Below are positions 1-48,421 of a stretch of DNA of 64,000 nucleotides, piece by piece. This DNA comes from an uncultured candidatus Porisulfidus sp. GTDB taxonomy: Bacteria > Pseudomonadota > Gammaproteobacteria > Poriferisulfidales > Oxydemutatoraceae. A program made the position numbers and the translations under genes. Under the pieces are notes generated by a model. The model worked only from the letters and a program-made list of their open reading frames with translations. It did not search any database and was not told the DNA's origin. The stretch spans positions 2,415,801 through 2,479,800 of the forward strand of contig OZ244118.1 in NCBI GenBank assembly GCA_965215765.1, given 5' to 3'. How positions within the stretch are numbered: position 1 is the stretch's first letter; each line of letters starts with the position of its first letter.

Positions 1-905
1 CTGCCCGGGCAACACCGTGGTCGGCGGCCAGCTTAAACCCTGATTGTCCTACTCTCCGGGTCAGGAAACGGCGGTCTGAGCGGGAATCCTGACTTGGGCA
101 CACGCTTCGCGCGCGTGTACGGCAGCAACAGCTATAGCAATTTCTGCAATTGTTCTTGCAGTTCTTCTTTGTGAAGGGTTCCCTAACCCTGATTGTCCCA
201 CTCTCCGAGTCAGGAAACTGCGGTCAGAGCGGAAATAGTCGGGAAACTGAAAAATGCCGCCATTGAAGCCGACTTCAACTGCCCGGGAAACACCGTGATC
301 GGCGGCCAGCTTAAACCCTGATTGTCCCACTCCCCGGGTCAGGAAACGGCGGTCTGAGCAGGAATTCTGACTTGGGCACACGCTTCGCGCGCGTGTACGG
401 CAGCAACAGCTATAGCAATTTCTGCAATTGTTCTTGCAGTTCTTCTTTGTGAAGGGTTCCCTAACCCTGATTGTCCCACTCTCCGGGTCAGGAAACGGCG
501 GTCTGAGCGGGAATCCTGACTTGGGCACACGCTTCGCGCGCGTGTACGGCAGCAACAGCTATAGCAACTTCTGCAATTGTTCTTGCAGTTCTTCTTTGTG
601 AAGGGTTCCCTAACCCTGATTGTCCCACTCTCCGGGTCAGGAAACGGCGGTCTGAGCGGGAATCCTGACTTGGGCACACGCTTCGCGCGCGTGTACGGCA
701 GCAACAGCTATAGCAACTTCTGCAATTGTTCTTGCAGTTCTTCTTTGTGAAGGGTTCCCTAACCCTGATTGTCCCACTCTCCGGGTCAGGAAGTAGCGAC
801 CGGAACAGGAATTCTGACTTGGCACACGCTTCGCGTGCGCGTACGGCAGCAACAGCTATAGCAACTTCTGCAATTGTTCTTGCAGTTCTTCTTTGTGAAG
901 GGTTC
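1..905. repeat. Tandem array, 149-bp unit (full copies starting at 38, 316, 465, 614, 763, plus a 129-bp variant unit at 187-315 whose end matches window bases 1-37). The array runs off the window start. Each full unit carries the last ~52 bp (14 codons plus stop) of the adjacent thioredoxin-like gene.
   Basis: Direct reading: 'ccctgattgtcccactctccgggtcaggaaacggcggtctgagcgggaatcctgacttgggcacacgcttcgcgcgcgtgtacggcagcaacagctatagcaa(c/t)ttctgcaattgttcttgcagttcttctttgtgaagggttccctaa' recurs with period 149. The terminal 'ctatagcaacttctgcaattgttcttgcagttcttctttgtgaagggttccc' is the reverse complement of the codons for ...KGTLHKEELQEQLQKLL* of ORF 856..1440. Confidence 0.9.
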
Positions 906-1440
906 CCTTTTTAATGAAGCGCACAACCTTGTCACGATCAATCAAGGCACTGAATGGCAGCCCGCCTGAGTCGTTGCCGAGTTCTTTGCCTAGTGCAATG
1001 GCGTCACTGAACCCGATGAGCTGGAGATATTTCACCTGCGGCAGGCTGTCAAGGAAGGCTTGGGCTGGTTCAAGTTCATCTATAGCAATTCCCACTACTT
1101 CAAAGCCCTGCTCGTGATACTGGTCACGGAAATCACTGAACACCGGAATCTCACGCAAACACGGGGGGCACCAGGAAGCCCAAAAGTTCAATAAAACCAC
1201 TTTCCCCTCCCAACTTTTGCTGGACACAGTCTCACCGCTGAGGTTTTTCATGGCAAATTCAGGAACTGTTTTGCCAAAATCCACATCTACAACCTGCGTG
1301 TTCGGTTCTTTGTGCTTCCCCTCCGGCAAATCGTACAGCGTTACCCCGGCAATGGTCGCCACGATGGCCAACAGAAGCAAATGAGGAATGAATCTCATTT
1401 TTCCAGGTTCCTTTTCGCTAAACATCTTTTCGTTGGGCAT
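856..1440 (-). CDS. Periplasmic thiol:disulfide oxidoreductase, TlpA/DsbE-like thioredoxin fold (WCPPC active site). Likely true start at the 3rd Met (coordinate 1398, MRFIPHLLLL...), which gives an N-terminal signal/anchor.
   Basis: 194-aa ORF with 'NFWASWCPPCLREIP' thioredoxin CxxC motif and a hydrophobic N-terminus. It lies immediately downstream of dsbD on the same strand. Confidence 0.8.
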   Translation of the reverse strand: MPNEKMFSEKEPGKMRFIPHLLLLAIVATIAGVTLYDLPEGKHKEPNTQVVDVDFGKTVPEFAMKNLSGETVSSKSWEGKVVLLNFWASWCPPCLREIPVFSDFRDQYHEQGFEVVGIAIDELEPAQAFLDSLPQVKYLQLIGFSDAIALGKELGNDSGGLPFSALIDRDKVVRFIKKGTLHKEELQEQLQKLL

Positions 1441-7340: not shown

Positions 7341-7877
7341 ATGAAACTCCTTCTCCTTGACCGTGACGGGGTCATCAACGAAGACGTTGGATATGTGAAA
7401 TCGGCATCTGAATGGCATGCACTACCTGGCAGTCTTGAAGCGATAGCACGCCTTAGCCAGAACGGCTGGTTTGTAACATTGGTATCCAACCAATCTGCCT
7501 TGGGCAGGAAAATCCTTTCTTTGGACAATCTGGCAGAAATCCAGGGAAAATTGCAAGCAGAGTCAGCTGCAACGGGAGCAGCCATAGCCGGACTGTCCTT
7601 TTGTCCCCACCTGCCAGACGCCGGTTGCGAGTGCCGCAAACCAGCCCCCGGGATGCTTCTGAACATTGCCAAAAGGCTGGATGTCAACCTGGCAGAAGTC
7701 CCATTCATTGGTGACAAGCTAAGCGACATACTTGCTGCCAAAGCTGCAGGGGCGCGCCCTATGCTGGTTTTGACAGGGCAGGGAAAGGAGGATGTAAAGA
7801 ACCCCGGCTTCCCAAGTGATGTCCCTGTTTACCAGGATTTGGCAGAAGCCACGGACCAACTGTTATCCGCTCACTAG
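7341..7877 (+). CDS. gmhB: D-glycero-beta-D-manno-heptose-1,7-bisphosphate 7-phosphatase (HAD-IIIA, histidinol-phosphatase-like)
   Basis: 178 aa. 'LLLDRDGVIN' HAD motif I, 'CxHxxxxxCxCRKP' Zn-binding motif ('CPHLPDAGCECRKPAPGM'), 'IGDKLSDILAAKAAGA' motif III. Confidence 0.85.
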   Translation: MKLLLLDRDGVINEDVGYVKSASEWHALPGSLEAIARLSQNGWFVTLVSNQSALGRKILSLDNLAEIQGKLQAESAATGAAIAGLSFCPHLPDAGCECRKPAPGMLLNIAKRLDVNLAEVPFIGDKLSDILAAKAAGARPMLVLTGQGKEDVKNPGFPSDVPVYQDLAEATDQLLSAH

Positions 7878-8930
7878 ACCCGTTTCCAGGATCCAAAAAC
7901 GTAGCCTGGCTCAGCAATTGCGTGCTGCGCGCTGTACCCGAAGACGCGTATCAAGCTATGTGTTTTTTGCGGGTACCCTGGCCGGACGAAATCTGGCAGA
8001 AATCCAGGGAAAATTGCAAGCAGAGTCAGCCGCAACGGGAGCAGCCATAGCCGGACTGTCCTTTTGTCCCCACCTGCCAGACGCCGGTTGCGAGTGCCGC
8101 AAACCAGCCCCCGGGATGCTTCTGAACATTGCCAAAAGGCTGGATATCGACCTGGCAGAAGTCCCATTCATTGGTGACAAGCTAAGCGACATACTTGCTG
8201 CCAAAGCTGCAGGGGCGCGCCCTATGCTGGTTTTGACAGGACAGGGAAAGGAGGATGTAAAGAACCCCGGCTTCCCAAGTGATGTCCCTGTTTACCAGGA
8301 TTTGGCAGAAGCCGCGGACCAACTGTTATCCGCTCACTAGACCCGTTTCCAGGATCCAAAAAACGTAGCCTGGCTCAGCAATTGCGTGCTGCGCGCTGTA
8401 CCCGAAGACGCGTATCAAGCTATGTGTTTTTTGCGGGTACCCTGGCCGGACGAAATCTGGCAGAAATCCAGGGAAAACTGCAAGCAGAGTCAGCCGCAAC
8501 GGGAGCAGCCATAGCCGGACTGTCCTTTTGCCCTCACCTTCCAGACGCCGGTTGCGAGTGCCGCAAACCAGCCCCCGGGATGCTTCTGAACATTGCCAAA
8601 AGGCTGGATATTGACCTGGCAGAAGTCCCATTCATTGGTGACAAGCTAAGCGACATACTTGCTGCCAAAGCTGCAGGGGCGCGCCCCATGCTGGTTTTGA
8701 CAGGACAGGGAAAGGAGAATGTAAAGAACCCCGGCTTCCCAAGTGATGTCCCTGTTTACCAGGATTTGGCAGAAGCCGCAGTCCAACTGTTATCCGCTCA
8801 CTAGACCCGTTTCCAGGATCCAAAAAACGTAGCCTGGCTCAGCAATTGCGTATCGCATGCTGTACCCGGAAACGCATATCAAGCTATGCGTTTTTGCGGG
8901 TACCCTGGTCGGAAGAAATCTGACAGGCGG
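7531..8930 (+). repeat. Tandem triplication, about 462-bp unit (copies 7531-7993, 7994-8454, 8455-8915, then about 15 bp of a fourth). Each copy carries the 3' 115 codons of gmhB plus about 120 bp of downstream sequence.
   Basis: Near-identical blocks read directly. ORFs 7816..8340 and 8382..8804 are read-through frames that re-enter the duplicated GmhB C-terminal frame ('...AEIQGKLQAESAATGAAIAGLSFCPHLPDAGCECRKP...LLSAH'). Confidence 0.9.
8870..8895 (+). terminator. Candidate intrinsic terminator: 9-bp stem aaacgcata / tatgcgttt, 6-nt loop, followed by a T-run
   Basis: Read directly in the last (most distal) repeat copy. The corresponding hairpin is imperfect in copies 1-3. Confidence 0.35.
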
Positions 8931-9310: not shown

Positions 9311-9814
9311 CTAAACGTCTCCTGCGGCGGCTCTGGCGAGCTCCGATTCGATGGCTCTCAGGGCTGCGTTATAAGTATCAATGCTTTTACCGCCAGCCTT
9401 GGTAACGTCTTTCACCATTCCCCAAGCGTGGTTCAGTCCCTTTTGCACGGCGGAATTCTCACCGACAGGCATCTCGCTTTTAATCGCTTCTTCCAGACCG
9501 TGCAATGTTTTTTCTCTTTCCGCAGTTTGCGCATCGGGAAAAATCAGATCTTTGACAAAGGAGATTATCCAATCAACCGGCCCTTGCGGCCCTCTGTCAA
9601 TGCGTGGGTTTCCGTTTTTATCGATGAACAACTCGGGCGCAAACCCGCTTCCTGACCTTTCGAGTTTTCCGATTGCTTCCCGAAAGCCGGCAAGCCCTCT
9701 CTTCTGTGAATAATCATATCTGGCGGTGTTCACGCTTGGTGTCGCGTGTCTGGCTCCTATTACCGGGTGTGGCATTGTGCTTCTCCTTTCGTCCGTGGTT
9801 GCATCACCGCTCAA
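9311..9814 (-). CDS. Hypothetical protein (167 aa; possible start at MPHPVIG, coordinate 9776). No recognisable family.
   Basis: Open frame co-oriented with the downstream aldo/keto reductase. No motif recognised from sequence alone. Confidence 0.4.
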   Translation of the reverse strand: MSGDATTDERRSTMPHPVIGARHATPSVNTARYDYSQKRGLAGFREAIGKLERSGSGFAPELFIDKNGNPRIDRGPQGPVDWIISFVKDLIFPDAQTAEREKTLHGLEEAIKSEMPVGENSAVQKGLNHAWGMVKDVTKAGGKSIDTYNAALRAIESELARAAAGDV

Positions 9815-9883
9815 TCTCGCTTAATTGTCAGGTTGCTGATTGAGCAAAACAATAGGGTTCTATTGTACCACTGACTCGCCTGT

Positions 9884-10921
9884 TTACGGAGCCGGGAAGG
9901 GGAAACTCGTGTGTACGGCCTCTATTTTTTCAATCAGTTCCTGATCCAGCTTTATGTCTGCGGTTCCGATATTGTCTCGCAGCTGTTCCATTGTCGTCGC
10001 CCCAACAATGGTTGAAGTCAAAAACTTCCTTCCATTGACCCACGCAAGCGCCAGTTGGGCGGGGCTCAAGCCTGCGTCTTTGGCAATGCGCACATATTGC
10101 TCGGTGGCCGCTATGGAGTTGGCACCCAAATAACGCTGAAAATGAGGGTGAAGAGTCAGCCTCGCATCCTTTGGTTTCTGGTCTTGTAAGTACTTGCCGG
10201 TCAGCACGCCAAAGCCCAGAGGTGAGTAAGCCAGCAAACCGGTTTTCTCACGATGCGCAAATTCCGCCAAGCCCACCTCAAAGGAGCGGTTCAGGAGGTT
10301 GTATGGATTTTGCACGCTCACAACACGAGGCCACCCCCGTTGTTCAGAAAGTCTCAGGTAGCTTGCAACCCCCCAGGCGGTTTCATTGGCTATTCCGATA
10401 TGTCGAACCTTCCCTTGAGATACTGCGTCTGCCAAGGCTTCCAGCGTTTCTTCCAATGGGTCAGCTTGCTCGTCTTCACTGTATGGATAGCACAGGGTGC
10501 CAAAAAAATTGGATGTGCGTGCCGGCCAGTGCACCTGATACAGATCAACATATTCCGTCCCCAGACGTTCGAGGCTTTTTTCAAGAGCCAGGCTCACTTG
10601 CTCTTTTGTCAGACGCGGACCTCCGCGTACAAAAGTCGTCCAGGTGGATGGTCCTGAGACTTTGGTTGCCAGGCAAACCTCGTTCCTTGTGCCGCGCTTC
10701 TTCAGCCATCTGCCGATAATCCTTTCGGTGTCTCCGTATGTGCCTGCCGACATCGGAACAGGGTATATTTCTGCAGTATCAAAGAAATTCACTCCCTGAG
10801 TCAGGGCATAATCCATTTGTTCGAAAGCCTCGCTTTCGGAATTTTGTTCACCCCAAGTCATTGTGCCAAGGCAAATCAGACTAAGTTGCAAGTCCGTATC
10901 GCCTAATTTTCTGTATTCCAA
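9884..10921 (-). CDS. NADP(H)-dependent aldo/keto reductase, Tas/YajO-like
   Basis: 345 aa. 'LGDTDLQLSLICLGTMTWGE...FDTAEIYP' AKR N-terminal signature and 'AYSPLGFGVLTGKY'. Confidence 0.85.
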   Translation of the reverse strand: MEYRKLGDTDLQLSLICLGTMTWGEQNSESEAFEQMDYALTQGVNFFDTAEIYPVPMSAGTYGDTERIIGRWLKKRGTRNEVCLATKVSGPSTWTTFVRGGPRLTKEQVSLALEKSLERLGTEYVDLYQVHWPARTSNFFGTLCYPYSEDEQADPLEETLEALADAVSQGKVRHIGIANETAWGVASYLRLSEQRGWPRVVSVQNPYNLLNRSFEVGLAEFAHREKTGLLAYSPLGFGVLTGKYLQDQKPKDARLTLHPHFQRYLGANSIAATEQYVRIAKDAGLSPAQLALAWVNGRKFLTSTIVGATTMEQLRDNIGTADIKLDQELIEKIEAVHTSFPFPAP

Positions 10922-13779: not shown

Positions 13780-14586
13780 TCAGTCGAGCAGTCCTGTTTC
13801 AGGCGAAGAACTGCTGGCAAAGCGACGCTTTGTCATGCGTCCGGCCAGGTAGGCAGCACGTCCTGCCTGTACTGCCAGATTCATGGCATGTGCCATAGTT
13901 ACAGGTTTCCTGGCCATCGCGATTGCGGTGTTCATCAACACGCCGTCGCAGCCAAGTTCCATCGCAATGGCAGCGTCCGAAGCAGTTCCAACTCCGGCAT
14001 CCACAATTACCGGCACCCGCGCGTTCTCTACAATGCTGCGAATATTGCCCGGATTGCGGATACCCTGCCCTGAGCCTATCGGTGCGGCCAAGGGCATCAC
14101 AGCCGCGCAGCCGATTTCTTCAAATCGTGTCGCCATAACGGGATCGTCGTTGGTGTACACCATCACCTTGAAGTCTTTCCGGATCAGCAGTTCTGCTGCT
14201 TCCAGCGTCTGTATGACATCCGGAAACAAGGTTTTTTGATCAGCGAGCACCTCCAGCTTGACAAAAGAATGTCCGAGCAATTCACGCGCGAGCAAGCACA
14301 CACGAACTGCGCTTTCTGCCGTGTAGCAGCCAGCCGTGTTCGGAAGAATGAACCAGCGATCCGGGCCCAGTGTTGACAACAGATCCGGTTCTTTTGTGGC
14401 ATGTTCCAAATTCATTCGGCGCAAGGCGACGGTCACAATCTCGGCTCCGGAAGCCAGCACTGCCGCTTTGCTTTCTTCCAGATCCCGGTATTTTCCGGTT
14501 CCAACCAAAAGACGCGAAGTGAACGATTTATCGGCAATAAGCAGTTTTTCAGTCATCGGCAATTCCCGCTGTTTTCCATGTCTCAT
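13780..14586 (-). CDS. thiG: Thiazole synthase ThiG. Alternative, likelier start [12 protein letters not shown] at 14556.
   Basis: '[19 protein letters not shown]' and '...[14 protein letters not shown]' ThiG family signatures. Immediately downstream of thiS. Confidence 0.9.
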
Positions 14587-15329
14587 CCCCGTTAACCGCC
14601 ACCAATAGCCCGAACAATTTCAACCGCATCGCCATCTTCGAGAATACATTGATCGTATTCATCGCACGGTACAATCTTGCGGTTCACTCTTCCAGATCCC
14701 GGTATTTTCCGGTTCCAGCCAAAAGGCGCGAAGTGAACGATTTGTCGGCAATAAGCAGTTTTTCAGTCATCGGCAATTCCCGCTGTTTTCCATGTCTCAT
14801 CCCCGCTAACCGCCGCCAATAGCCCGAACAATTTCAACCGCATCGCCATCTTTGAGAATGCATTGATCGTATTCATCGCACGGTACAATCTCGCGGTTCA
14901 CTCTTCCAGATCCCGGTATTTTCCGGTTCCAGCCAAAAGACGCGAAGTGAACGATTTATCGGCAATAAGCAGTTTTTCAGTCATCGGCAATTCCCGCTGT
15001 TTTCCATGTCTCATCCCCGCTAACCGCCACCAATAGCCCGAACAATTTCAACCGCATCGCCATCTTCGAGAATGCATTGATCGTATTCATCGCACGGCAC
15101 AATCTCGCGGTTCACTCTTCCAGATCCCGGTATTTTCCGGTTCCAGCCAAAAGGCGTGAAGCAAACGATTTGTCGGCAATAAGCAGTTTTTCAGCCATCG
15201 GCAATTCCCGCTGTTTTCCATGTCTCATCCCCGCTAACCGCCACCAATAGCCCGAACAATTTCAACCGAATCGCCATCTTCGAGAATGCATTGATCGTAT
15301 TCATCGCACGGCACAATCTCGCGGTTCAC
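14474..15329 (-). repeat. Four tandem 214-bp units. Each spans the thiS 3' end (last ~35 codons incl. ...VRAIGGG*), the 20-bp intergenic spacer and the thiG 5' end (first ~33 codons). The outermost copies are the genuine gene ends.
   Basis: Marker 'tcatcggcaattcccgctgttttccatgtctcatcccc' recurs at 14553, 14767, 14981 and 15195. Homology begins at 14474 inside thiG and ends at 15329 inside thiS. Confidence 0.9.
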
Positions 15330-15434
15330 TTCGGCGGCAAATAATTGCCCGTCAAGATCCAGCTTGCCAAGTAATCCCCCGAGGGTCAGCCCTTGGGGAT
15401 ATTCGTTCTGATGCCCGTTTAACTTGAGATTCAT
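15234..15434 (-). CDS. thiS: Sulfur-carrier protein ThiS (66 aa, C-terminal GG)
   Basis: 'MNLKLNGHQNEYPQGLTLGGLLGKLDL...[14 protein letters not shown]' with the typical ThiS length and GlyGly terminus. The longer ORF-track frame is rejected. Confidence 0.85.
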   Translation of the reverse strand: MNLKLNGHQNEYPQGLTLGGLLGKLDLDGQLFAAEVNREIVPCDEYDQCILEDGDSVEIVRAIGGG

Positions 15435-15674: not shown

Positions 15675-16739
15675 GTGAGCTTTGAAATGCCCCACCGTTG
15701 TCTGGTTGTAGGCGGCGGCGTACTGGGTCTGTTTACGGCTCTCAAGCTTCGCAAGCTGGGCTGGCAAGTGACTTTGCTGGAGAAACAAAGCCTGGGAGCC
15801 GGGGCGAGCTCGGCTGCAGGCGGGATCCTGAGCCCGCTGTACCCTTGGCGGCAAAGCCGGAAAATAAATTGCCTGTTCAGCCAGTCTCTGTACGCATACC
15901 AGAGATTCTTTCGGGAAACAGCGGCATTGGGGATGAGAGTGGCTTATTCCCAACCGGGCTTGTTTTGCCTGGATGTTGAAGAGCACCCCATGGCGCGCAA
16001 GTGGGTCGCATCCCGACACCTTTCCCTGGAAACATGGCCTCGCCGGCGACTGCGTGCCGTCTTTCCGCGCTTGCGCGCTGGCAGTGGCTTTTTTCTGCCG
16101 GATGTTTGCCAAGTAGATCCGGTCAATTTAATTGCCAGGCTGACGCAACTGGCGACTCATCATGGGGTTCGTATTCGTGAAAATATGTCAGTCCGAAAAT
16201 TGCTGCTGCGCAACCGTATGGTTGGCGGCGTGATTTGCGAGCGAGAAGAAATTCGCGGTGATGCCGTCGTGATTTGCGCTGGCGCATGGTCTAAAGAGCT
16301 GATTCCCACAGCACAAAAATGGTGCCCGGTACGCCCCGTAAAAGGACAAATCATCGAGTACCGTACAAAACCGGGACTATTGCCACATATCGTGTTGCAC
16401 CGTGGAAAGTATTTAATTCCCAAACCGGACGGACGGATTCTTGCCGGCAGCACTTTGGAAAATTCCGGCTTTGACACCACACCGACATCCGCCGCTCGCG
16501 TCGAACTGGACAGCTTTGCCAGGAGCGTTCTTCCAGGACTTTCCATATACAAAATATCTGATCAGTGGGCAGGGTTGCGCCCCGGACTCGCCACGCCCTT
16601 CGTGGGGGCACATCCCGATATTAAAGGCCTTTTTCTCAATACCGGACACCACCGCAATGGAATCGTGCTGGCATCCGGCTCAGCAGACTGGATTGCTGCG
16701 GCGTTTGCACGGCTAATCCTCAGAAACAACCCGGCTTGA
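15675..16739 (+). CDS. thiO: Glycine oxidase ThiO (FAD-dependent)
   Basis: 354 aa. 'CLVVGGGVLGLFTALKL' FAD-binding motif. Divergent from thiS-thiG, as in many beta/gamma-proteobacterial thi loci. Confidence 0.8.
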   Translation: MSFEMPHRCLVVGGGVLGLFTALKLRKLGWQVTLLEKQSLGAGASSAAGGILSPLYPWRQSRKINCLFSQSLYAYQRFFRETAALGMRVAYSQPGLFCLDVEEHPMARKWVASRHLSLETWPRRRLRAVFPRLRAGSGFFLPDVCQVDPVNLIARLTQLATHHGVRIRENMSVRKLLLRNRMVGGVICEREEIRGDAVVICAGAWSKELIPTAQKWCPVRPVKGQIIEYRTKPGLLPHIVLHRGKYLIPKPDGRILAGSTLENSGFDTTPTSAARVELDSFARSVLPGLSIYKISDQWAGLRPGLATPFVGAHPDIKGLFLNTGHHRNGIVLASGSADWIAAAFARLILRNNPA

Positions 16740-17426
16740 ACTTTTTGCCTGCTACGCCACGGCTCGGAGCCAGCTCGGAGCCATCCCGGAGTCGTTCCGG
16801 TGAAGCGCGCTGCCTGTCGCAACATCCGGCTCAGCAGACTGGATTGCTGCGGCGTTTGCACGAGGCTAATCCTCAGAAGCAACCCGGCTTGAGCTTTTTG
16901 CCTGCTGTATACCGGCTTCGGAGCCATCTTGGAGCCGTTCCGGTGAAACGCGCTGCCTGTCGCAACATCCGGCTCAGCAGACTGGATTGCTGCGGCGTTT
17001 GCACGGCTAATCCTCAGAAGCAACCCGGCTTGAGCTTTTTGCCTGCTGCGCCACGGCTCGGAGCCATCTTGGAGCCGTTCCGGTGAAACGCGCTGCCTGT
17101 CGCAACATCCGGCTCAGCAGACTGGATTGCTGCGGCACTTGCACGGCTAATCCCCAGAAGCAACCCGGCTTGAGCTTTTTGCCTGCTGCGCCACGGCTCG
17201 GAACCAGCTCGGAGCCATCTCGGAGCCAGCTCGGAGCCAGCTCGGAGTCGTTCCGGTGAAACGCGCTGCCTGTCGCAGCATCTGGCTCAGCAGACTGGGT
17301 TGCTGCGGCGTTTGCGCGGCTAATCCTCAGAAGCAACCCTGCTTGAGCTTTTTGCCTGCTGCGCCACGGCTCGGAGCCATCTCGGAGTCGTTCCGGTGAA
17401 GCGCGCTGCCTGTCGCAACATCTGGC
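16672..17426. repeat. Tandem array of about 140-150-bp units (about 5 copies, one 181 bp with internal gagccagctcg sub-repeats). Each repeats the last ~22 codons and stop of thiO. The array fills the whole gap between convergent thiO and the ATPase gene.
   Basis: 'catccggctcagcagactggattgctgcggcgtttgcacggctaatcctcagaagcaacccggcttga' recurs at 16672 (genuine), 16823, 16966, 17106 and about 17287, with a truncated copy at about 17418. Confidence 0.88.
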
Positions 17427-35406: not shown

Positions 35407-38400
35407 TCAGCGAATCATACCGCCCAGGAATACCCTCAGGCGCAATTTCTTGACGTGATGCGGACCTGGTCTCGGCGTTGTCGGGATCTCGGGATCCCAG
35501 TTGATAAATTGACTCACTCCTGGCAGCTCAGCCACGCTGTCCCGAGGGAATGCCCGGACTTCGTACGCGACACCGCCCTGCAACCCCGTAAATTCCATCC
35601 TGACGGCTCCCCCGGGCGTCGGCATCGCAACAGACTGTTCCTCTATCAGTTCCCCGTATGAAAGCAGTTGTACCCGATACCCCAAGCCGAGCAATATTCC
35701 GTCAACCGGGGCTCCGAAATCAGCATGATCCGCAGTGCGTCCATAGCCATCATTCCCCGAATATTGCAAGTGTACCTGCACACGACCATTCGCCTTGTGC
35801 ATCAGCTGCATGGCCAATGTTCCCTCAAGAACGTCGAGCAAGGTAAATGCTGCTGTGCCCATCGCGCCCGTTCCGGCGCGGTTGACTGCCCGGAGCGAAT
35901 AGCGTATCTGCTCTCCTCCTGCGTGCTTCTTGCGCAGCTGCACCACGACATGGCCTGACAACACATAAGAAGTGGCGGTTCCCGAGACGGGGTGGCTTTT
36001 TCCGTCCACAAAAAGCTGGTAGCTGTCTATCGTCGCCCCGTTGCTGCTCGCCGCTTCCCAACTCAGGTTCACCCGATCTGCGGACTTCCACCTGGCTCGC
36101 AAGCCCGAAGGTCTGCCAGGCACCGCTATGGTGCTGAACGCGCTTCTGTTTTCGGATGCCTGGGCGGGCTCCCCGGTGCCAGCCCGGTTGCGTGCATAGA
36201 CCTGTAACGAATAGCTTCTCTTCGGCAGCAAGTCGGTGATCTCAATCTCGGTGTCAAAAGCACCTGCCGAGAAAAAGGTCTCGGTGCTGCGTCCTCCAGC
36301 ACTCACCACCACCACGTAGCCAAAACCGGAGCCTGCAACGCGATCAGAGGAAGACGCAAGCGCATCACCCGCCAGGGGAGCGCAATCGTCATGTCCCATG
36401 ATCATCAACACCAGGCGCGCAGTGGTTTGCCCGGGCACCAGCTCCGTTATCGTCGTCGCGCCCGGAAGACCGGGCAAATAGAAATGACCGACCGCCGGAT
36501 AGCCAGCGACATCTCCGCGCACAGCGCGAAGACGGTACGGGTGGGGGCAAGCCCCCTGGCTGTTTTTCCGAAACTCAGCCAGAAAATCTCCGTTGAAGTC
36601 AAAAGTCGGTGCTGTGACTTCCCGTATTGTTCCTGCCAGTTCAAGTTCGTACGAATCAACCGCTGGACTTCCCGCCGCCCAAGTAAAGCGCAGATGATCC
36701 GGAGATTCCCAGCTCACCGCCAAATCAACCGGTGCGGCAGGAATGTCGACAAGCGCGCGCAGCAAGGGCAACGTGCGGGTATTGCCAAAATGCCAGGCTC
36801 CCGGTTCCCAGCCGGCATAAGTCGTGGCACCTGCGCATCTTTGCCCCGCCGCAGTCGGGCAACGCAGCTGGGTCAGAGTGCGAGGTAAAGCACCTTCCGT
36901 CAAGCCACTGCCCACCAAAGATGCCTGTGCAGACACGGGTGCGTAACTGCGATCAATCACCGCATCCGGAGCAGAATAACCCGCCAGACTCCCGGTGCTG
37001 CCCGATTCCCCAACAACCCTGTTCGCTGCATAGCTGTCCTGTATGCGGCGGATATTGTTTCCGACCAGTCCCCCGATAGAGAAATGACCCCGCACCTCAC
37101 CGAGTGCATAGCTCGCATGGACAGAACCCGAGTTGATGCCCACCAGTCCGCCAACACGGCTATCTCCGCTGACCGACACGTCGGCATAGCTGTAGGCAAT
37201 GGTGCTTCCGCTGTAGCCGACCAGACCGCCGGCGCGCGAGCCGTCCACAGCGATGGCCGAACCTGTCGCGTAACAGTGCAAAATCGTGCTTCCCTGGCTA
37301 TAGCCAACCAGACCGCCAGCATTGTCCCGCCCTTCACCCGTGACGCGCACCGCCGCATCGGCACTGCTGTGCAAAATAGCGGCTCCCAGAGCCAGACCGG
37401 CCAGACCACCGGCAGACTCAAGCGCGCTTACTTGCGAAGCCCTCACCGTGCTGCCCACGACCCGACCTTTTGCTTTCACATAACCGACCAGACCGCCGAC
37501 GTATCTGCCCCCGCCAACCTCGGCACTGGCACCACTGTTGATCAACAATCCTCCGTTGCCACCCGCCAGCCCGCCAATGTTGAGCCCGGCTCTGTTGCCG
37601 GAAATCTGTGCGGACTTCACAACGCTGTTCATGACGGTTCCGTCGTTAAAGCCGACCAAGGCTCCGACGCTGTTTTTTCCTTTTACCCACGCATCAACGA
37701 GCACCACATCTTTGACGATCCCGTCTATTGCAACTCTGGAAAACAGGCCAACCGTATCCGTCTCCGGGCGGTTAATGTGCAGAGCAGAGATTTGCCGCCC
37801 TGCCCCGTCGAAAGTGCCTGAAAAAGGCTCTATCGGATGAAAACCGGCGCCGCCTGACCACTCCCGACTCGACCGGGCGTCAATATCTGCCACCTGCACA
37901 TAGTGAGCGTGCAGATCAGAGCGCACATCCTGCAGTTGGCACAACGTGCCAATTTGCCACGGGTTGTCGCCGCTGCCGTCACCCTGCGCACTTTTCAGAC
38001 CCTTGCCGGCGCATCCCGGAAAGCGGGTCACCGACCCGGATCGTTGACGGCGATCCGGTGCCCACCGTGTTATGGGCGAAGGCTTCCAGCCGATATGCAA
38101 AGGCACTTTTAAGCTCCGTAAATTCCATTGTGACCGGGCTCAGAGGACTCCCCAGCGGAATGTCGCGTTCTTCAACCAGCTCCCCGGACGCATACAGATG
38201 TATCCGGTAAGCCAGGTGCAAAGCCATGGCTTCCGCTGACGTTGCGTAATCAGCGTCACCCGGTTTGCGACCGTAGCCGTCATTGGCCGGGGCTGTAAAA
38301 CTGAGTCTCAGCGTGGAGACCCCCGGCACCACGTGCATATCAGCCGGAGAACCAGGAACATCCAGCAGGCGCACGGAAACACGGGCAGCTTCGCCAACAC

Positions 38401-41400
38401 CATAAAGGTTGTAGCCACGAACCGTTAAAAAGAGCGTATTCCCGCCTTCATGACGGGCGCGCAGCTTCTGCAACCAGTCCGATCCTCCCACGTAGTACAA
38501 CGATGCGGTTTCCTCAGCAGCGATCGATGGAGCCTCAATCCGGTAAGCGATCAGTTCTTTGGTGTGAAGCGGAGGCTCCCAACGCAGCAACAAGGCAGAC
38601 GGGGATTTCCACTGCGCGAGCAGGCGCAAGGGTTTGCCAGGAGTCTCAAAGCCCTGCAGAACCGGCAGCGTCCTGTAATCTCCGAAGGACCAGATCTCGG
38701 CACTCCAGCCTGAGTATGTTGACCTTCCCGCACACGCCAGGCCGGGGGCGGTGGGACAACGCAGTTGCTGTAGCGTCCGCAAGGAGCCTGATCCCTGCCC
38801 GGCGTCATCTGCCACAAAAGGCATGCCGCCACCATTGGGGCCATTGACGCGAGGCAACGCTGCTGCGTAGCTGTCGGTAATGCCTTCCGAACTGCTGCCG
38901 GCAAAACTTCCGGACTGTCCGGCTCCGGACACCGAGCCTGCCGCATAGCTGCGGCTGACGGTGCCCTGATTGTTTGCCACAAGACCCGCGACCAGACCTT
39001 CCCCGGTCACAAAAGCTGTTGTGTAACTGTCAGTCACCGAGCCCCGGTTGTCTGCGACCAGACCACCCGCCCGAACTGCTCCTGACACCGAGCCTCCGGC
39101 ATAGCTTGTATCAATACTCCCGGTTACCAGATTTCTTCCGACCAGGCCACCCGCTACTTGGCCTCCCGGCTCTGCCGTCAGCTGTGCCGCGCTGCCGCTG
39201 ATCATGCCTGCGTTGATACCGACGAGTCCTCCCGCCACTTGCCCGCCAAAAAGTGAGCCCGTCACCCCGCTGTTCACGATCCTTCCTCCCTCGTTCCTGC
39301 CCGCCAGAGCACCCACGTTGACGCTTCCCCAAAGCTGTGCGTTCACCAGCACGACCTGCTGCAATAACCCGCCCCGAAGCTGCGCAAACATGCCGACATC
39401 TTCCAGCGCCTCAGAGCGCACCCTTAAATGGAAAATCTGATGACCGGCGCCATCAAGGGAACCGGAAAAATCAGCAATCGGCGCAAAGCCTTTTCCGGCT
39501 CGCCAGTCCCGGGATGGACCTGCCTCAATATCGCTTGCCAGCCGGTAGTGGGCTGCAGGAACAGAGCGAATGTCCTGCAATTGGCACAGCGTGGCAATCT
39601 GCCAGGGATTGTCCTCGCTGCCCGAACCGCCTGCCGATGCCAGGGCTTCCCCGTCGCACTGCCAGGGACGGGTAAATGCCGACAGGAAAAATGACGACCC
39701 TTCTCCAACATTGTTATAGGGCGTCGCCTCCACTTCATAGCGGCTATTGCTTGCCAGACCCGAAAATTCCACAACTGCGGATGTTTCGCCAGCTGTGTGC
39801 GCACGCTCCCGCTCCTGCACCAGTTCTCCCCCGGCGTACAACCGTACCCGGTAACCCAAACCTGAAGAAACCCCGACACTCGTATATCCGTAAGCCGGGT
39901 CTTCCGGTGATTGGCCGTAGCCGTCGTCAGCCGGAGCCATAAGAAACACCTGCAGCGAAAATGCCTGCGCCGATGCCCGAACGACCGTCAATTTGCCTGG
40001 GGCTCTCAGCAGTCTGATCACAACCGTCGTCGCTTCGCTCATGCCATGGCGGTTATATCCACGCACGCTGACTTGCAAGGTACTGTCCCTATATTCGGAA
40101 CGGAGGTTTTTCACCAGGTGCCTGCCGAGCGTAAAAGATGCGGATCCCGTTTCCAGGGAACGCCCTGCCACCTCCACCCAATAGCCGGCGTTCAGACTTC
40201 CTGTTTTCGCGGCTGTCCAGTTCAGTTCCAGATCACCTTCCAGGTTCCATCGCGCCTGCAGGCGTGAAGGGGGAGCAGGTGGCACTGCTTGCAGGGCGCG
40301 ATGGGTCGGGAGCGTCTGCTCGTCCCCGAAATACCAGATTTTGGTGCTCCAGCCGGAGTAACTGATTGCTCCCTGGCACGTGTCTCCCGGCAAAAGAGGA
40401 CACTGCAATTGCGCCAGCGTGCGGGAAAAATTGTTTTCTGTGGCGTCCTCTTCCCCGCTGCCCACGAGTTCCAGCGCGCTGCTGCCGACACCCGGCTCCA
40501 AGGCGTAATTCGCAACCATATCGGTGCCCACGGATTGCCCCACCAGCATGCCCGCCTGATTGTTCCCGTTAACCAGACCTGTCGCATAACTGTCCTCAAT
40601 ACTGATGTTTCTGTTGCGGAAGTGACCACTGTTTCCCGCCAGGCCGCCTACCTGCACATTCCCGCTGACCGAACCAGTCGCATAACTGTCGTCAATCGAG
40701 CCTCGACTGGTTCTTCCCACCAGCCCGCCTGCCTGCACATTCCCGCTGACCGCTCCGGTCGCATGGCTTCTGAGGATTGACCCTGAGTTGAGACCCACCA
40801 GACCTCCCACACGGTCCCCCGCGCCGATAACCATGCTGTCCGAGTAGCTGTCAACTATGGAATAGGGATGATCGTGCTGACCCACCAACCCGCCCACATC
40901 CTCTACCCCATTGACCGCTCCTGCCGAATAAGAGCCGCTTATAAAGCCATGGTTATAACCCGCCAGCCCGCCTACATATTGATGCCCGCTTACCGTTGAC
41001 TGCGCGTGGCAGTGGTAGATCGGAGCCACATTGAACCCCACCAGCCCACCAACACTGTTTGCGCCGCTCACACTTCCTCTCGCGTGCGAACTGCGTATCC
41101 TCGCGCCCCAGGCATTCCTGCCCACCAGTCCGCCTATCATGTTGCCGTGCCTCTGGAAATCAACCGTTCCGACAACGGTAGACTCCGAATGGCTGAGCTT
41201 GATTAAGCCATGATTCTCACCTGCCACTCCTCCCACACGATTCCGCCCGCCTATCAACCCAGTCACCGTGCTGCCCTTGATGCTTCCATTTGCCGCAACG
41301 CGTCCTGCCAGGGCTCCTGTTGCATTTCTGCCCCGCACCGTAACATTCACGAGTGCCAGCCTTTGCAGAGCACCACCGTTGAGCTTCCCGAACAGCCCGA

Positions 41401-44400
41401 CATGGTCTGCTTGCCCAGGATTGATCAAAAGACTCAGAATACTGTGACCACTCCCGTCCAGAGAGCCGGAAAAAGATTCAATCGGTGGAAAACCCTTTCC
41501 GTCTCGCCACTCGTGGCTTTGCTTCGCGTCTATATCGTTTGCCACCCGATAATCAGCTGCCGTGTCGTAACGTATTTCATGCAACTGGCAAAGTGTGCCG
41601 ATCTGCCAGGGGTCATCCTCGCTGCCAGAGCCCGCTGCCGTTATCACCGCTGCCCATGGACACGCGCCAACGTAGGTGAAAACCGGTGCTATCACCGTTG
41701 TTGAGCCTGCGCCCGTCTTGTTTCTGGCAAACATCCTGACTTCGTACCTGGAACCACCTTCCAGGCCTGAAAACTCCACTACGGTCGTGCTTGACCATTC
41801 CTGCTGTGTCACACGCCGCACTTCTTTCAACAGGCCTTTTGAAAACAGTTGCACGTGGTATGCGAGATCCAGCGCAACTCCGCCTGCCGGCTCCCCGTAC
41901 ACGTTGCTGCCCGGTGCGCGTCCGTAGCCATCATCAGCGGCTCCGGTAATGGTGACCTGTATTGTTGACAGCCCCGAAGCTGTCTGAGTCCCCACCTCCC
42001 CCGGAACTTTCATCAAATGGAAACTTCCCGACGCTGCATCTCCCGCAACGCCTCCTTTTACGCCGCGTATGGAATAGTGGATTTCACTGCCGCTGACGTA
42101 ATGCTCACGCAATTCAGCCATTAATGAGCCGCCAAGCGCGAAACGGGTTCCCTCGGTGTCTCGAATGATTCCGCCCACCTCCACCTCAAAAGAATTCACG
42201 GCAACTCCTTGATGCCACCCCCACTGCAGCGTCAATCCACCTCTCGAATTCCAGTTTGCACGGACTGCATGCGGGGCAACGGGAACATCCGTAACTGTCC
42301 GGAGCACGGGCAGCATGCGAGAGTTCCCGAAATACCAAATCCTCGTATCCCAACCCAGATACACACCAGCTGCCCGACAAAGATTGACGGGCAACATCGA
42401 GCACTTCATCTGCTCCACGGTGCGCAAATCACTGCCCTGTACTGCACCGTTATCCTCGCCCAGGAGGCTGTCCCCGTCGCCCAGCTTGCTGGCATAACTG
42501 CGGTCTATCGTGCCACCATTGACTCCGACCAGCCTGCCCGGCAAATCAGTTCCGCCTACAGCACCCGTGCTATAGGCACTTCTGACCAAGCCGCTGTTTT
42601 CGCCGACCAGTCCACCTGTCTGACTGTCTCCGGTCACTACGCCTCGTGCGTAACTGTTACCAATGCTTCCCCAGTTTTCGCCGACCAGACCCCCAACCTG
42701 GTTCTTTCCAGTCACACGTGCGTTCACGTTTGTATGGCTGTTCACGATGCTGGCGTTGCCCCCGTTCACACCCACCAGACCACCTGCCTGACTGCCTCCG
42801 GACACCGGGCCTTGTGCGTAGCTGTCACTGATGCTTCCCTTGTTATCGCCGACCAGACCACCTGCCTGACTGCCTCCGGACACCAGGCCTTGTGCGTAGC
42901 TGTCACTGATGCTTCCCTTGTTATCGCCCACCAGACCCCCAACCTGGTTCTTTCCAGTCACACGTACTCGCCCGTTTGTATAGCTATTCACGATCCTGGC
43001 GTTGCCCTCGCTCACACCCACCAGACCACCCACCTGACTGTCTCCGGACACTACGCTTTGCGCGTGGCTGTTGCTGATGCTTCCCCAGTTTTCGCCGACC
43101 AGACCCCCGACCTGGTTCTTTCCACGTACTTGCCCCTTGCTGTGGCTACTCACGATGCTGGCGTTTTTCAGGTTCATACCTACCAGACCGCCTACCTGAC
43201 TGTCTCCGGACACCGTGCTCCACGTGTAGCTGTCACTGATGCTTCCCCAGTTTTCGCCGACCAGACCCCCGACCTTGTTCTTTCCACGTACTTGCCTAAG
43301 TGCATGGCTACTCACGATCCTGGCTTCGTTCACACCCACCAAGCCCCCAATCCCGGGGGCTGCTCCGACAACATAGCTCTCCGTGTAGCTGCCACTGATG
43401 GTGCCGCCAAGGTGCCAACCCACCAGACCACCCACGTAGCCCCTCCCTGAGGCATGAGTCCCGGTCACATCTCCAGTCGCATCGCTGGAAGTGACCGAAC
43501 CCCTGTTTTTGCCCACCAGACCTCCGACTTGATTGCCTCCTGTTACTGCACCCCTCGCATGACTGCCCACAATCGTGCCACCGTCATTCTGACCCACCAG
43601 ACCGCCGGAAACCCATGTGTTGCGAGAATTCTTCCCAACCCTTACCGTCGACGTGCTGTTACGAATGACACCGCCCCGATTCAGGCCAACCAGCCCACCG
43701 ATGGTTTTGCCCCCGTCAACCTTGCCATCAACCATGCTGCCCTCAATCGTCCCCCGATCGTTCAGCCCAACCAGAGAACCGACATTCACTCCGCCGTTCG
43801 TCGAAAAATTCACCAGCTTCACGCGCTTCAGCAAGCCACCCTGCAACTCGCCAAACAACCCTGTGTTCTCGAATTCTCCGGCTGTTGCACTGACCTTCAA
43901 ATTGGAAATTTTGTAACCGTTGCCATCATAGGTGCCAGAAAAACCCTTGATCGGTGCAAAACCGTCTTTCCAGCCATGCGTCATCGTCGTTGCGTCTATA
44001 TCCTTGATCTGGACGTAGTGCGACTGAGGCGATGCTTCCATGTCGCGCAAATGGCACAGGTTTTCTACCTGGTAGGGATCAGTTTCAGTTCCGGAACCTG
44101 CCATGGCCTGCGAACTTATAGCGCACGCCTGATCTGGATCCATGTAGGGAAATTGGCTGCCGTTGTAATAGGTGTCTCCGTAATTGAGAATGTTGAAGGC
44201 TCTTTCGTCCGTGTAAATCCCTCCCATCCCATAATAAAATGAGGTGCAATCCCGACCCTCCTCGCCCGGATGGGCATTTAGAACCCCTATCATCATGCCG
44301 GTCTTTTTATAAAATGCGGATGAGCCGGACGCTCCAAACGTAGGAGAGATGCCCTTATACGTTAAATCCAAAAACCAGCAAATCGCTCCTTCGCAGAAAG

Positions 44401-45664
44401 GCGGGCCGCCTCTCTTACCGCCGACGCTCCCGAGTGAATCGGTCGCTGCCACTGCACTTTCAAACTCACCCAGCTGCTGAGGCTTGGAGCCAGAGTGGTG
44501 TACGGAGAAACCACTGAAAGTATCGGTAGTGCGGGTCATCCACTCCAGCAATTTATAATCTCCGTGCCCGATAAACCGTCCAGTAAGACGCACAATCGCC
44601 CAATCTCCACCCTCATCTCCCGGCACTCTTGCCTTTCCTGCCACGTATCTCACACCAAAGGCGTATGAATCACCAGGAAGACCGATGAAGAATGGCAAAA
44701 ACGGTTTGTCCACAGTGTTAGCGTACGCTTCAGGGAAAAGGTGAAACGCTGTCAGAATGTAGGGGGCTCCATCACCTGACTTGTTCTTTATAAAACTCCC
44801 AGTCCCGCAGCCAGCATCTCCGCCAAAATAGCGGCACATGCTTACGACACCTTTGGTCACATCCCGCACGTAAGCCGGGCTGTCGCTGTTTACATAGTTA
44901 TTGTTACCGGAAACAAATTCGTTGATGTTTGCGCGCTCGCAACTGTCGGCTTGTCTCCGAGGTGCCAGGTTCCTGACTCCCTCTCCGTATAAAACTCCGT
45001 TGTTATCCTTAAATGTGTGGCTCACTTTTTCGACCGAAAAAGGAAAATCGCCTGGCTCCAGGTGGTAACTGTCCGGAACCCAAAACTCTATGACAACGGT
45101 ATCACCAGACACCGGGAACGCCACAAAGCTGCCATCATTACGTGACAAGCCACGTCCCGTGTACTCTACGACCTCTTCATTGCTGTCTCCGGCGAAGGCA
45201 TAGACATTCACCGACATGCCCGGGTCGAGGGGAAACCCAGAAAAATGCAACCACAGCTGCAGGGCAGACGGAGAGCGAATCTGCGCCTGCCAGACATCAA
45301 GACCGTCTTCCTGTTTGACCAGTGCCCAGTTGGAACGCCTTAAATGGACGTCCCGGGCAAAGCTGGTGTAGTTGATCGTTGTCTCACGGAGCAGTTCACG
45401 AATTTGCTCTTGTTCCCGGGTACTGAAAGGCCCCAAGTCCAGTTGCTGTGCGCGGGCAGGATACAGAGTTCGAGTGGCTTCCCGGGCATTCCTCCCCTCC
45501 GAAAAGGGATAGGACGCATAGCCTTGATCTGCCAGAGATTCCTGATCCTGGCCGAAAACAAGAGAGCTCGACGTGATGATAGATACACCCACGAACAGCC
45601 ACTTCAGCCAACCATGGCTGCCGGAAATCTGCGTATCCGAAAATCTGAAACCTGCTTCTTTCAT
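35407..45664 (-). pseudogene. Giant GLUG/S1-protease paralog 2 (about 3,419 codons), interrupted by a +1 frameshift near 38044-38048 (ORF 37979..45664 of 2561 aa, then ORF 35407..38106 of 899 aa). Could be an authentic pseudogene, or a sequencing/assembly error in a repeat.
   Basis: The two ORFs overlap by 128 nt. Paralog 1 has 'gggtcaccgtccggatcg' where paralog 2 has 'gggtcaccgacccggatcg'. The protein is collinear with paralog 1 on both sides of the break ('...STIR' | 'VTRFPGCAGKGLKSAQGDG'). Confidence 0.65.
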
Positions 45665-47305
45665 TGTGAGTGCTTACGAGCCATGCGGGCAGAGAAAAGA
45701 GAGCCTGGCCATCCTGAGACATAAAATTCCCTGCACCACATTCGCTATCTGTTCTTCATGGCTACGCACTGAGCGATCCTCTGGCTCTGACCTTCACTCA
45801 CTCTCTGATGTCCCAGTACGGCTGTACGCGGTCAGGATACAGAGTTCGAGTGGCTTCCCGGGCATTCCTCCCCTCCGAAAAGGGATAGGACGCATAGCCT
45901 TGTTCTGCCAGAGACTCCTGATCCTGGCCGAAAACGAGTGAGCTTGACGTGATGATGGTTACACCCACGAGTAGCCACTTCCGCCAACCATGGCTGCCGG
46001 AAATCTGTGTATCCGGAAATCTGAAATCTGCTTTTTTCATTGTGAATGCCTACGAGCCATGCAGGCGGAGAAAAGAGAGCCTGACCACCCTGAGACATAA
46101 AATTCCCTGCACCACATTCGCTATCTGTTCTCCATGGCTGACGCACTGAGCGATCCTCTGGCTCTGACCTTCACTCACTCTCTGATGTCCCAGCACGGCT
46201 GTACGCAGGCAGGATACAGAGTTCGAGTGACTTCCCGGGCATTCCTCCCCTCAAAAAAGGGATGGGACGCGAAGCCTTGTTCTGCCAGAGATTCCTGATC
46301 TTGGCCGACAGCAAACGCGCTTGACGTGATGATGGTTACACCCACGAGCAGCCACTTCAGCCAACCATGGCTGCCGGAAATCTGCGCGTCCGGAAATCTG
46401 AAACCTGCTTCCTTCATTGTGAATGCCTACGAGCCATGCGGGCGGAGAAAAGAGAGCCTGACCACCCTGAGACATAAAATTCCCTGCACCACATTCGCTA
46501 TCTGTTCTCCATGGCTGACGCACTGAGCGATCCTCTGGCTCTGACCTTCACTCACTCTCTGATGTCCCAGCACGGCTGTACGCAGGCAGGATACAGAGTT
46601 CGAGTGGCTTCCGGAACATTCCCCCCCTCAAAAAAGGGATGGGACGCGAAGCCTTGTTCTGCCAGAGATTCCTGATCCTGGCCGAAAACGAGTGAGCTTG
46701 ACGTGACGATGGATACACCCACGAGTAGCCACTTCCGCCAACCATGGCTGCCGGAAATCTGTGTATCCGGAAATCTGAAATCTGCTTTTTTCATTGTGAA
46801 TGCCTACGAGCCATGCAGGCGGAGAAAAGAGAGCCTGACCACCCTGAGACATAAAATTCCCTGCACCACATTCGCTATCTGTTCTCCATGGCTGACGCAC
46901 TGAGCGATCCTCTGGCTCTGACCTTCACTCACTCTCTGATGTCCCAGCACGGCTGTACGCAGGCAGGATACAGAGTTCGAGTGACTTCCCGGGCATTCCT
47001 CCCCTCAAAAAAGGGATGGGACGCGAAGCCTTGTTCTGCCAGAGATTCCTGATCCTGGCCGAAAATGAGTGAGCTTGACGTGATGATGGATACACCCACG
47101 AGTAGCCACTTCCGCCAACCATGGCTGCCGGAAATCTGTGTATCCGGAAATCTGAAATCTGCTTTTTTCATTGTGAATGCCTACGAGCCATGCAGGCGGA
47201 GAAAAGAGAGCCTGACCACCCTGAGACATAAAATTCCTTGCACCACATTCGCTATCTGTTCTCCATGGCTGACGCACTGAGCGATCCTCTGGCTCTGACC
47301 TTCAC
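45665..47305 (-). repeat. 4.3 tandem copies of a 377-bp unit that duplicates the giant-gene 5' leader (about 150 bp) plus start codon and first ~68 codons. Each copy ends in an 80-aa signal-peptide ORF (MKKADFRFPDTQISGSHGW...).
   Basis: Start codons of the leader-ORFs at 46040, 46417, 46794 and 47171 (period 377). Breakpoint just after codons '...RTLYPA'. Confidence 0.9.
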
Positions 47306-47719
47306 TCACTCTCTGATGTCCCAGCACGGCTGTACGCGCCGAAAAATCACTAGTGGGTCAATTGTACAAAATAACGCCCATTTCAGCAAATTATTATAAG
47401 AAGATACCGGCCTCATCCGACCGGAAAACCCCGAAAACAGTACCAAGGTGTGCAGTCTTATTTGTGAGCTTTTTGGTCTCCAAGGGGGTGAATCAGTGGC
47501 AATAGTCGGCACTGCAACTTCCTGTTTTTAACCACGAAAAACGTGAAAGTTGGTATTTGCAATTCGTATGATTTCAGTTTTGTGACAGCTTCCAAAGTTC
47601 ACCAAAAGCCCCAATTCAAGGCCTGTTGTTTTAAGACAATTCAACAGTTGTGCTTCATGCTCATCAACAATGTTTGTCATGGCAGATATAGTCAGGCTTA
47701 TGGACTTGCTTTAAAGGTT

Positions 47720-48421
47720 CACCCTCTGTGCCTTAAAAGAAGTGCTCCTTATGGGAAACTCCTTCTCCGGACACTCCTGATCCACTGCCTCAAGAAAACC
47801 ACACCTTCATCAGAAAACAAAACCCTTTCGTTTTTTCGGGCTATTAAACTCGTGGTTCATGGTTTCTCTCCAGTTGCCCGGGCTCTTCATCAAAGGAATG
47901 CTCCTTATGGAAAACTCCTTCTCCAGACACTCCTGATGCACTGCCTCAAGGAAAATACACCTCACTTCCCTGAACCGCATGGCATTCATCAGAAAACAAA
48001 ACCTTTTCGCATTTTAGCGGTTATTAAACTCGTGGTTCATAGCTCTCTCGCCAGCTGCCCGGGCTCTTCACCAAAGGAATGCTCGTTATGGAAAACTCCT
48101 TCTCCGGACACTCCTGATGCACTGCCTCAAGGAAACCACACCTCATTTCCCTGAATCGCATGGCATTCATCAGGAAATAAAATTTTTCGTATATTTCGCG
48201 GTTATTAAACTCATGGTTCATAGCTCTCTCGCCAGTTACCCGGGCTCTTCACCAAAGGAATGATCCTTATGGAAAACTCCTTCTCCGGACACTCCTGATG
48301 CACTGCCTCTTAGAAACTCCTTCTCCAAACACTCCTGGCACACTGCCTCAAGTAAGCCACACATTCATCAGAAAACAAAACCTTTTCGCGTTTTTCGCGG
48401 TTGTTAAATTCGTGTATGCCC
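47720..48421. repeat. Downstream repeat family, about 181-bp unit (about 4-5 copies), abutting the stop codon of paralog 3
   Basis: '(t/c)tattaaactc(g/a)tggttcat' at 47842, 48022, 48202 and 48402. 'ttatgg(g)aaaactcc' at 47749, 47905, 48086 and 48267. Confidence 0.85.

Follow-up and report, generated by a model that had tools for sequence, protein, structure and literature searches.

The tandem array at the beginning of the 64,000-nucleotide stretch of DNA that was analysed (from here on, 'the window') is very probably a long-period VNTR that was produced by a local segmental duplication and that captured the 3' ends of two convergent genes, with no repeat element having donated a tail to a protein. 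One of these genes encodes a TlpA-like protein, and the other (here termed 'gene X') is its convergent neighbour. The array between them is strain-specific. Taken alone the locus is ordinary, but the lineage has unusually many such arrays, and comparable events are found at no fewer than four further loci in the window.

Anatomy of the array

Positions 36-908 of the window are filled by a 149-bp unit that is repeated five times head to tail and by a single variant of 129 bp, as established by TRF, by repeat finding and by BLAST of the unit. TRF described the region from 314 to 908 as a repeat with a period of 149 bp (4.0 copies, 96% matches, score 1078), and repeat finding combined with BLAST of the unit added an extra full copy at 36-184 and a partial one at 185-232. 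The copies follow one another at spacings of 278, 149, 149 and 148 bp, the arrangement of a constant-period, head-to-tail array, and the 26-nt junction between one unit and the next (GAAGGGTTCCCT joined to AACCCTGATTGTCC) occurs four times in the window, against zero occurrences expected from 100 shuffles. The 149-bp array that had been described in an earlier, sequence-only reading of this DNA was thus borne out by the TRF score, by the five copies and by the recurrence of the junction.

The first unit (A1, 36-184, 149 bp, 98.7% identical to A3) is composed of the last 8 bp of gene X, an 88-bp spacer and a 53-bp TlpA-like tail. It is followed by the variant unit B (185-313, 129 bp), in which a 47-bp unit head (185-231) is followed directly by a duplicate of the terminal 82 bp of gene X (232-313, encoding EIVGKLKNAAIEADFNCPGNTVIGGQLKP and the stop), then by A2 (314-462, 97.3% identity), A3 (463-611), A4 (612-760, 100% identity, the same sequence as A3) and finally A5 (761-908, 148 bp), which is the gene-proximal and most divergent copy (91.9%) and which closes with the 53 bp that form the true 3' terminus of the TlpA-like gene. 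B and A1 together make up a 278-bp 'super-unit'. The sequence-only reading was right that the 129-bp variant is real and that the array is compound, but it did not see what the variant means: the 3' terminus of gene X, the convergent neighbour, is part of it. Microhomology of 2-4 nt (GG/GGAA) is present at the B joint; the junction between two A units is blunt and without microhomology, so that the mechanism of the initial duplication is not evident from it. The two ends of the 149-bp unit (AACCCT...AGGGTT) form a 6-nt inverted repeat, which is paired in the fold.

Long open reading frames run across the array on the minus strand (61-555 and 339-704), because the 149-bp period shifts the frame at every unit. 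Each of the non-genic TlpA-like tails has an in-frame TAG just upstream, created at the unit junction (...NQG, stop, GTLHKEELQEQLQKLL, stop), and the extra tails are therefore untranslated.

A CRISPR array was rejected as a description of the locus, on the grounds that the units abut without unique spacers and that each consists of a gene end plus an intergenic spacer. A dispersed REP/BIME/MITE-like element was rejected as well, the A and B units matching only positions 1-908 of the 64-kb window, and so was an array of a known structured RNA or sRNA, which was set aside on anatomy, with 0 Rfam matches in the whole 64-kb window.

The TlpA-like tail and the single-copy locus in relatives

The gene at the right-hand edge of the array (856-1440, minus strand) encodes a TlpA/ResA/DsbE-type thioredoxin-fold thiol:disulfide oxidoreductase with a WCPPC motif, and it comes last in a cutA-dsbD-tlpA-like cluster. 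Its product matches Pfam Redoxin (2.1e-23, 83 bits, against a cut-off of 26.6) and also AhpC-TSA, and the combination of a CxxC motif (WCPPC) with a family HMM over threshold places it in the thioredoxin fold. Matches to the NCBIfam ResA, TlpA and DsbE models all fall under the curated cut-offs, and no specific equivalog can therefore be assigned. Among solved structures, it matches ResA (PDB 4nmu, 2.5e-18).

The overlap between this gene and the repeat unit amounts to 53 bp (856-908), comprising 2 nt of Lys178, the 16 codons of GTLHKEELQEQLQKLL and the TAG stop. The sharing of a gene end with the unit had been noticed before, in the form of 14 codons and 52 bp, figures that become 16 codons plus the stop and 53 bp. 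The tail had also been described as identical in every unit, which holds for A3, A4 and A5; A1 and A2 carry one synonymous change (AAA versus AAG, Lys). Gene and repeat do diverge immediately upstream of the shared stretch, at position 909, just as had been described.

Contigs from three relatives (L001, L002 and L003) were obtained through a protein search with the TlpA-like protein. The orthologue is 98% identical in L001 (a 24.9-kb contig), 94% identical in L002 (a circular genome of 1.92 Mb) and 77% identical in L003 (a circular genome of 2.00 Mb); at the nucleotide level, the window and L001 are 98.3% identical over 8.2 kb. All three orthologues, which are array-free at this locus, share the tail ...GTLHKE(E/V)LQ(E/H)(Q)LQKLL. 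Across 23-24 orthologues, down to about 40% identity, residues G179, L181, L186 and L194 of the tail are invariant and K183 and L193 are nearly so; Pfam thioredoxin-type models reach into the tail, and the tail aligns with the final residues of the solved ResA structure 4nmu (IGEQTKEQLEGYLKKI).

Because the tail is conserved in orthologues and aligned with the end of ResA 4nmu, it is the native C-terminal end of the fold, which was copied into the repeat and not vice versa. A repeat-encoded or remodelled C-terminus is refuted by the same observations (its presence in the array-free L001-L003, its conservation across the 23-24 orthologues and its alignment to 4nmu). The sequence-only reading had left the choice between a gene end captured into the repeat and a repeat that now encodes the protein's C-terminus; the first half of that choice stands and the second falls, since array-free orthologues share the tail. 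That reading had also foreseen that orthologues with the same C-terminus and no repeat would imply simple 3' capture, and such orthologues are what L001-L003 provide.

The left-hand edge of the array is formed by gene X, whose 3' end lies at 1-43 on the plus strand (the last 13 codons, CPGNTVVGGQLKP, with TGA at 41-43), as read by translation and by its being the same as the end of L001:8849-9301(-). Positions 1-35 of the window are the same as the 3' end of the 150-aa gene X of L001, and the copy in B differs from them at 2 of 35 positions. The array had earlier been thought to continue to the left of the window start; positions 1-35 are most simply the true end of gene X, not another copy, and that claim is not borne out. 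The gene X product is 148-150 aa long in the relatives, ends in ...AAIEADFNCPGNTVVGGQLKP before the stop in L001, and ends alike in all three; no Pfam or NCBIfam family was matched by it.

In the relatives, the spacer between the TlpA-like gene and the convergent gene X measures 88 bp (L001), 83 bp (L002) and 94 bp (L003), and no tandem repeat was found at the locus in any of the three, so that 5(+1) copies in the window stand against 1 in each of L001, L002 and L003. The single-copy segment of L001 is collinear with one 149-bp unit and identical to it at 147 of 149 positions, both mismatches lying in a hairpin loop; its limits are AACCCTGA (the final two codons and stop of gene X) and GGGTTCCCT (within the TlpA-like tail). 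The ancestral state of the locus is a single copy.

Some further features of the neighbourhood were recorded. L003 possesses an additional thioredoxin-like gene (9394-10023, 209 aa) in the interval between dsbD and the TlpA-like gene, a gene that the window, L001 and L002 all lack. To the left of the window start, a PQQ-dehydrogenase/cytochrome c/periplasmic-binding-protein/rhodanese cluster (L001 9309-13939, L002 11114-15768) lies upstream of gene X. As read from its Pfam hits, the cluster resembles XoxF-XoxG-XoxJ, a hint of methylotrophy or of lanthanide-dependent alcohol oxidation in the lineage.

Sister arrays and repeat density in the lineage

Eight long-period arrays are present in the 64 kb, each of them lying across a gene boundary, and their copy numbers vary between strains that are 98% identical. 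The HAD-hydrolase array (7527-8926) contains 3.0 copies of a 464-bp unit made up of the last 351 bp of the gene (7341-7877, plus strand) and 113 bp of downstream sequence; the window has 3 copies, the L001 strain at least 4.5, and L002 and L003 have 1 each. In L001, every copy of this array was called as a 136-aa 'gene'. The thiS-thiG array (14474-15330) contains 4.0 copies of a 214-bp unit that joins the 3' end of thiS to the first ~113 bp of thiG (13780-14586, minus strand), and it places partial thiS/thiG fragments between two intact genes of one operon. The thiO-pilT array (16672-17431) lies between the convergent thiO and T2SSE/PilT-like genes; its unit of ~140 bp (~4.4 copies) has an 11-bp sub-repeat (GCTCGGAGCCA) and reproduces the terminal 68 bp of thiO. 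Copy numbers at these two loci, from which L002 was left out, are 4 in the window, 3.0 in the L001 strain (L084) and 1 in L003 (L085) for thiS-thiG, and ~4.4 in the window, ~11 (1.6 kb) in the L001 strain (L084) and none in L003 (L085), where a 67-bp spacer is found, for thiO-pilT.

Gene beginnings are captured further along the window. Arrays of a 377-bp unit, in five and six copies (45445-47337 and 58451-60720, with a single copy at 34691-35063), consist of the upstream region, the ATG and ~75-80 codons (signal-peptide-like, MKKADFRFPDTQISGSHGWRKWLLVGV...) of a giant GLUG/FN3 surface-protein gene, of which there are copies at 37979-45664 and 52125-58670 on the minus strand. As read from their sequence, the 377-bp units could be multiplying the promoters and start sites of these giant genes. 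Upstream of the 377-bp arrays are arrays of a 181-bp unit (47806-48349, x2.8, and 61188-61901, x2.9, with fragments at 24159-24381 and 35218-35399). The entire cassette of giant gene, 377-bp array and 181-bp array recurs with a period of ~13.0 kb, and tandem duplication is therefore nested at three scales.

Microhomology at the junctions ranges from 0 to 7 nt (A blunt, B GG(AA), HAD GGAC(G)AA, thiS-thiG ACT), and no sequence shared among the arrays of the window, and no common junction motif, was found. This lends no support to a common seed element or to a site-specific recombinase; with such short microhomologies and no motif in common, illegitimate duplication of a non-specific kind, later amplified through homology, is favoured over a site-specific system. 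The relatives also have long-period arrays of their own, for example 5.0 copies of a 244-bp unit across the end of a T2SSE gene (L085 2082-3309) and 5.4 copies of a 106-bp unit (L002 1-542), and L003 too has arrays at other loci; the tendency to form arrays is therefore lineage-wide and not peculiar to the strain of the window.

The union of TRF repeats comes to 11.7 kb, or 18% of the 64-kb window (14% without protein-internal repeats), and tandem arrays account for ~5% of 60 kb sampled from the relatives. The host is an uncultured gammaproteobacterium; the window has a GC content of 55% and the genomes of the relatives are ~2 Mb in size. The best named relatives of its ThiG (~70% identity) are Methylothermus, Thiodiazotropha and Kentrum, and relatives of its DsbD are ~43% identical.

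In published TRF surveys, the repeat share is 0.38% in E. coli and 6.3% of the genome in Ehrlichia ruminantium, where the periods average 139 bp (PMC3287509 Table 4), and active expansion and contraction at non-coding tandem repeats of E. ruminantium genomes is described in a passage of PMC10710844 that cites Frutos et al. 2006. To the extent of that passage, the present arrays resemble those of E. ruminantium in having units of ~100-470 bp in and around intergenic regions, with copy numbers that vary between close strains. They also resemble them in occupying a large share of sequence, although the figure here (14-18%) is that of one 64-kb window and the figure there (6.3%) that of a genome. 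The two hosts differ, E. ruminantium being an alphaproteobacterial obligate intracellular pathogen and the present one an uncultured gammaproteobacterium (~2 Mb, 55% GC). Wolbachia VNTR-105 and VNTR-141 (PMC3287509) are similar in being long-period intergenic repeats with single-copy flanking genes and copy numbers that are polymorphic between close strains; in contrast to the situation here, Wolbachia has few such loci per genome (0.1-1.6% of sequence), which serve as typing markers (PMC3287509). A general literature search on gene-end-capturing tandem repeats found nothing specific.

Origin, possible function and meaning of the array

The ancestral state from which the array would have grown consists of gene X (plus strand) and the TlpA-like gene (minus strand) in convergent orientation, separated by an 88-bp, hairpin-bearing spacer. 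A 149-bp segment, made up of the spacer together with the terminal 8 bp of gene X and the terminal 53 bp of the TlpA-like gene, would first have been duplicated head to tail and amplified. The 129-bp variant would then have come from a second event with a period of 278 bp, one of whose breakpoints fell 82 bp inside gene X and the other 47 bp into the following unit. Both genes still have a complete copy at their own edge of the array, which leaves both proteins unchanged, and unequal recombination among units would always restore intact gene ends, so that copy number could drift without cost.

Tandem amplification in bacteria begins with an illegitimate or microhomology-mediated first duplication, which is followed by unequal recombination; classical duplications span kilobases to hundreds of kilobases and are unstable, most of them being lost unless selected. 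The present arrays share with generic tandem duplications the local, head-to-tail arrangement of copies, the 0-7 nt of junction microhomology and the intact gene at the array edge. They differ from classical duplications in that their units measure only 130-470 bp and persist until the copies diverge by up to 9%. By comparison with the 1.7% that separates the window from L001, differences of up to 9% between copies within arrays indicate that the arrays have been long retained. We infer that the first duplication would have occurred by illegitimate joining or template switching, that amplification would have proceeded by unequal homologous exchange or slippage, and that gene conversion would have acted between copies.

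One observation counts against the simple form of the duplication model. The differences in A5 are clustered in a patch of 35-50 bp that agrees with the outgroup L002 (L002:10518-10661) at no fewer than four sites, part of this patch is also present in A2, and A1-A4 agree with L001; such a pattern is not predicted by a single recent duplication. It suggests that the array may be older than the divergence from L001, in which it would since have collapsed, or else that copies may have swapped patches by gene conversion.

An alternative to a by-product of mutation is that the array has a function, in which multiplied hairpins or terminators insulate the convergent transcription units, or a small or antisense RNA is repeated, and copy number tunes the expression of the TlpA-like gene and gene X. 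Each unit possesses a hairpin 13 nt past the TlpA-like stop, which in A1-A4 is the GC-rich ACACGC-TTCGCGC-GCGTGT (100-118, 378-396, 527-545 and 676-694, by direct reading and folding). The sequence-only reading had seen this inverted repeat as a feature of the unit; it is one in A1-A4, where it folds as a hairpin, but its sequence is altered in A5 (~823-845), which still folds. A repeat search with a minimum of 14 nt reported no inverted repeats, because the arms of the hairpin are only 6-8 nt long. Its position after the TlpA-like stop is kept in the relatives while its sequence changes (ACACGC...GCGTGT, CCGTGCA...TGCACGG and GCCAC...GTGGC), which lends some support to a function, and it would fit a 3'-end or terminator-type stem-loop, though one without a U-tract (a T-run is absent past it).

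Two further properties of the unit might be read in the same way. A weak terminator-like stem with a T-rich tail is found on the plus strand inside the TlpA-like tail of every unit (868-885, 144-161, 422-439, 571-588 and 720-737), five such sites against 2.1 +/- 1.5 expected, all of them by consensus match only, and the minus strand of the unit folds somewhat better than its shuffles (z = -2.4; L001, z = -3.2). Against a function, the GC-rich hairpin lacks a U-tract, no promoter-like site was found in the unit, and the unit has no Rfam match. One copy suffices in the relatives, and because they function with it the multiplication was judged to be a neutral by-product. Moreover, what the other arrays of this kind have captured is unrelated (gene interiors, 5' ends and the thiS-thiG junction), which points to a mutational process and not to a selected design. 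A functional array is thus improbable, and selective neutrality would be the more fitting description.

It is less probable still that the extra copies are an artefact of assembly, generated from mis-assembled reads of mixed strains. The TlpA-like/gene X array is known from one assembly only, that of the window, and neither the JGI metagenome collection nor the gene-position collection yielded a matching contig. In the metagenomes, the A-A junction and the junction between the single-copy gene and its flank both went unmatched; in the gene-position collection, an exact-match look-up of the TlpA-like and DsbD proteins of the window matched no contig. A genome-contig scan with the generic pattern NFWASWCP yielded, among the matches listed, only distant relatives (<=41% identity). 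Against an artefact stand the consistent substitutions of the copies and their compound 278-bp structure; moreover, the HAD, thiS-thiG and thiO-pilT arrays were independently recovered, with different copy numbers, in the assembly of another sample, and every array is shorter than 2.3 kb. The last alternative, an invading, pre-existing repeat element that replaced the 3' end of the TlpA-like gene and now supplies its C-terminus, has as its sole support that the tail is common to every unit, and is next to impossible in view of the same tail in array-free relatives, of a tail motif kept to ~40% identity and matching the solved ResA end, and of a unit that is collinear with the single-copy ancestral locus and occurs nowhere else in the window.

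With local segmental duplication preferred, the value of this locus is mainly corrective: the tail is native, both genes are unaltered, and neither the extra tails nor the open reading frames that cross the array should be annotated as genes. The locus represents a known kind of event, and the density of arrays across the lineage is of mild to moderate interest. The wider pattern of eight arrays in 64 kb marks the lineage as a second case, independent of Ehrlichia ruminantium, of the repeat-driven genome plasticity described there, and it offers both ready markers for strain typing and a natural set of junctions for the study of how short tandem duplications originate and persist in bacteria. 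It is a tentative proposition, and a rather doubtful one, that the lineage makes and retains tandem duplications of 100-470 bp across gene boundaries genome-wide and on an ongoing basis, at a density equal to or greater than that of the phylogenetically unrelated E. ruminantium. Behind such a tendency there might be an unusual replication or repair background, in which blunt-junction duplications are frequent, for example, or repeats are poorly removed. The multiplied 5' ends with their upstream regions, and the multiplied 3' ends with their hairpins, might then serve as raw material for variation in expression, for example upstream of the giant GLUG/FN3 surface-protein genes.
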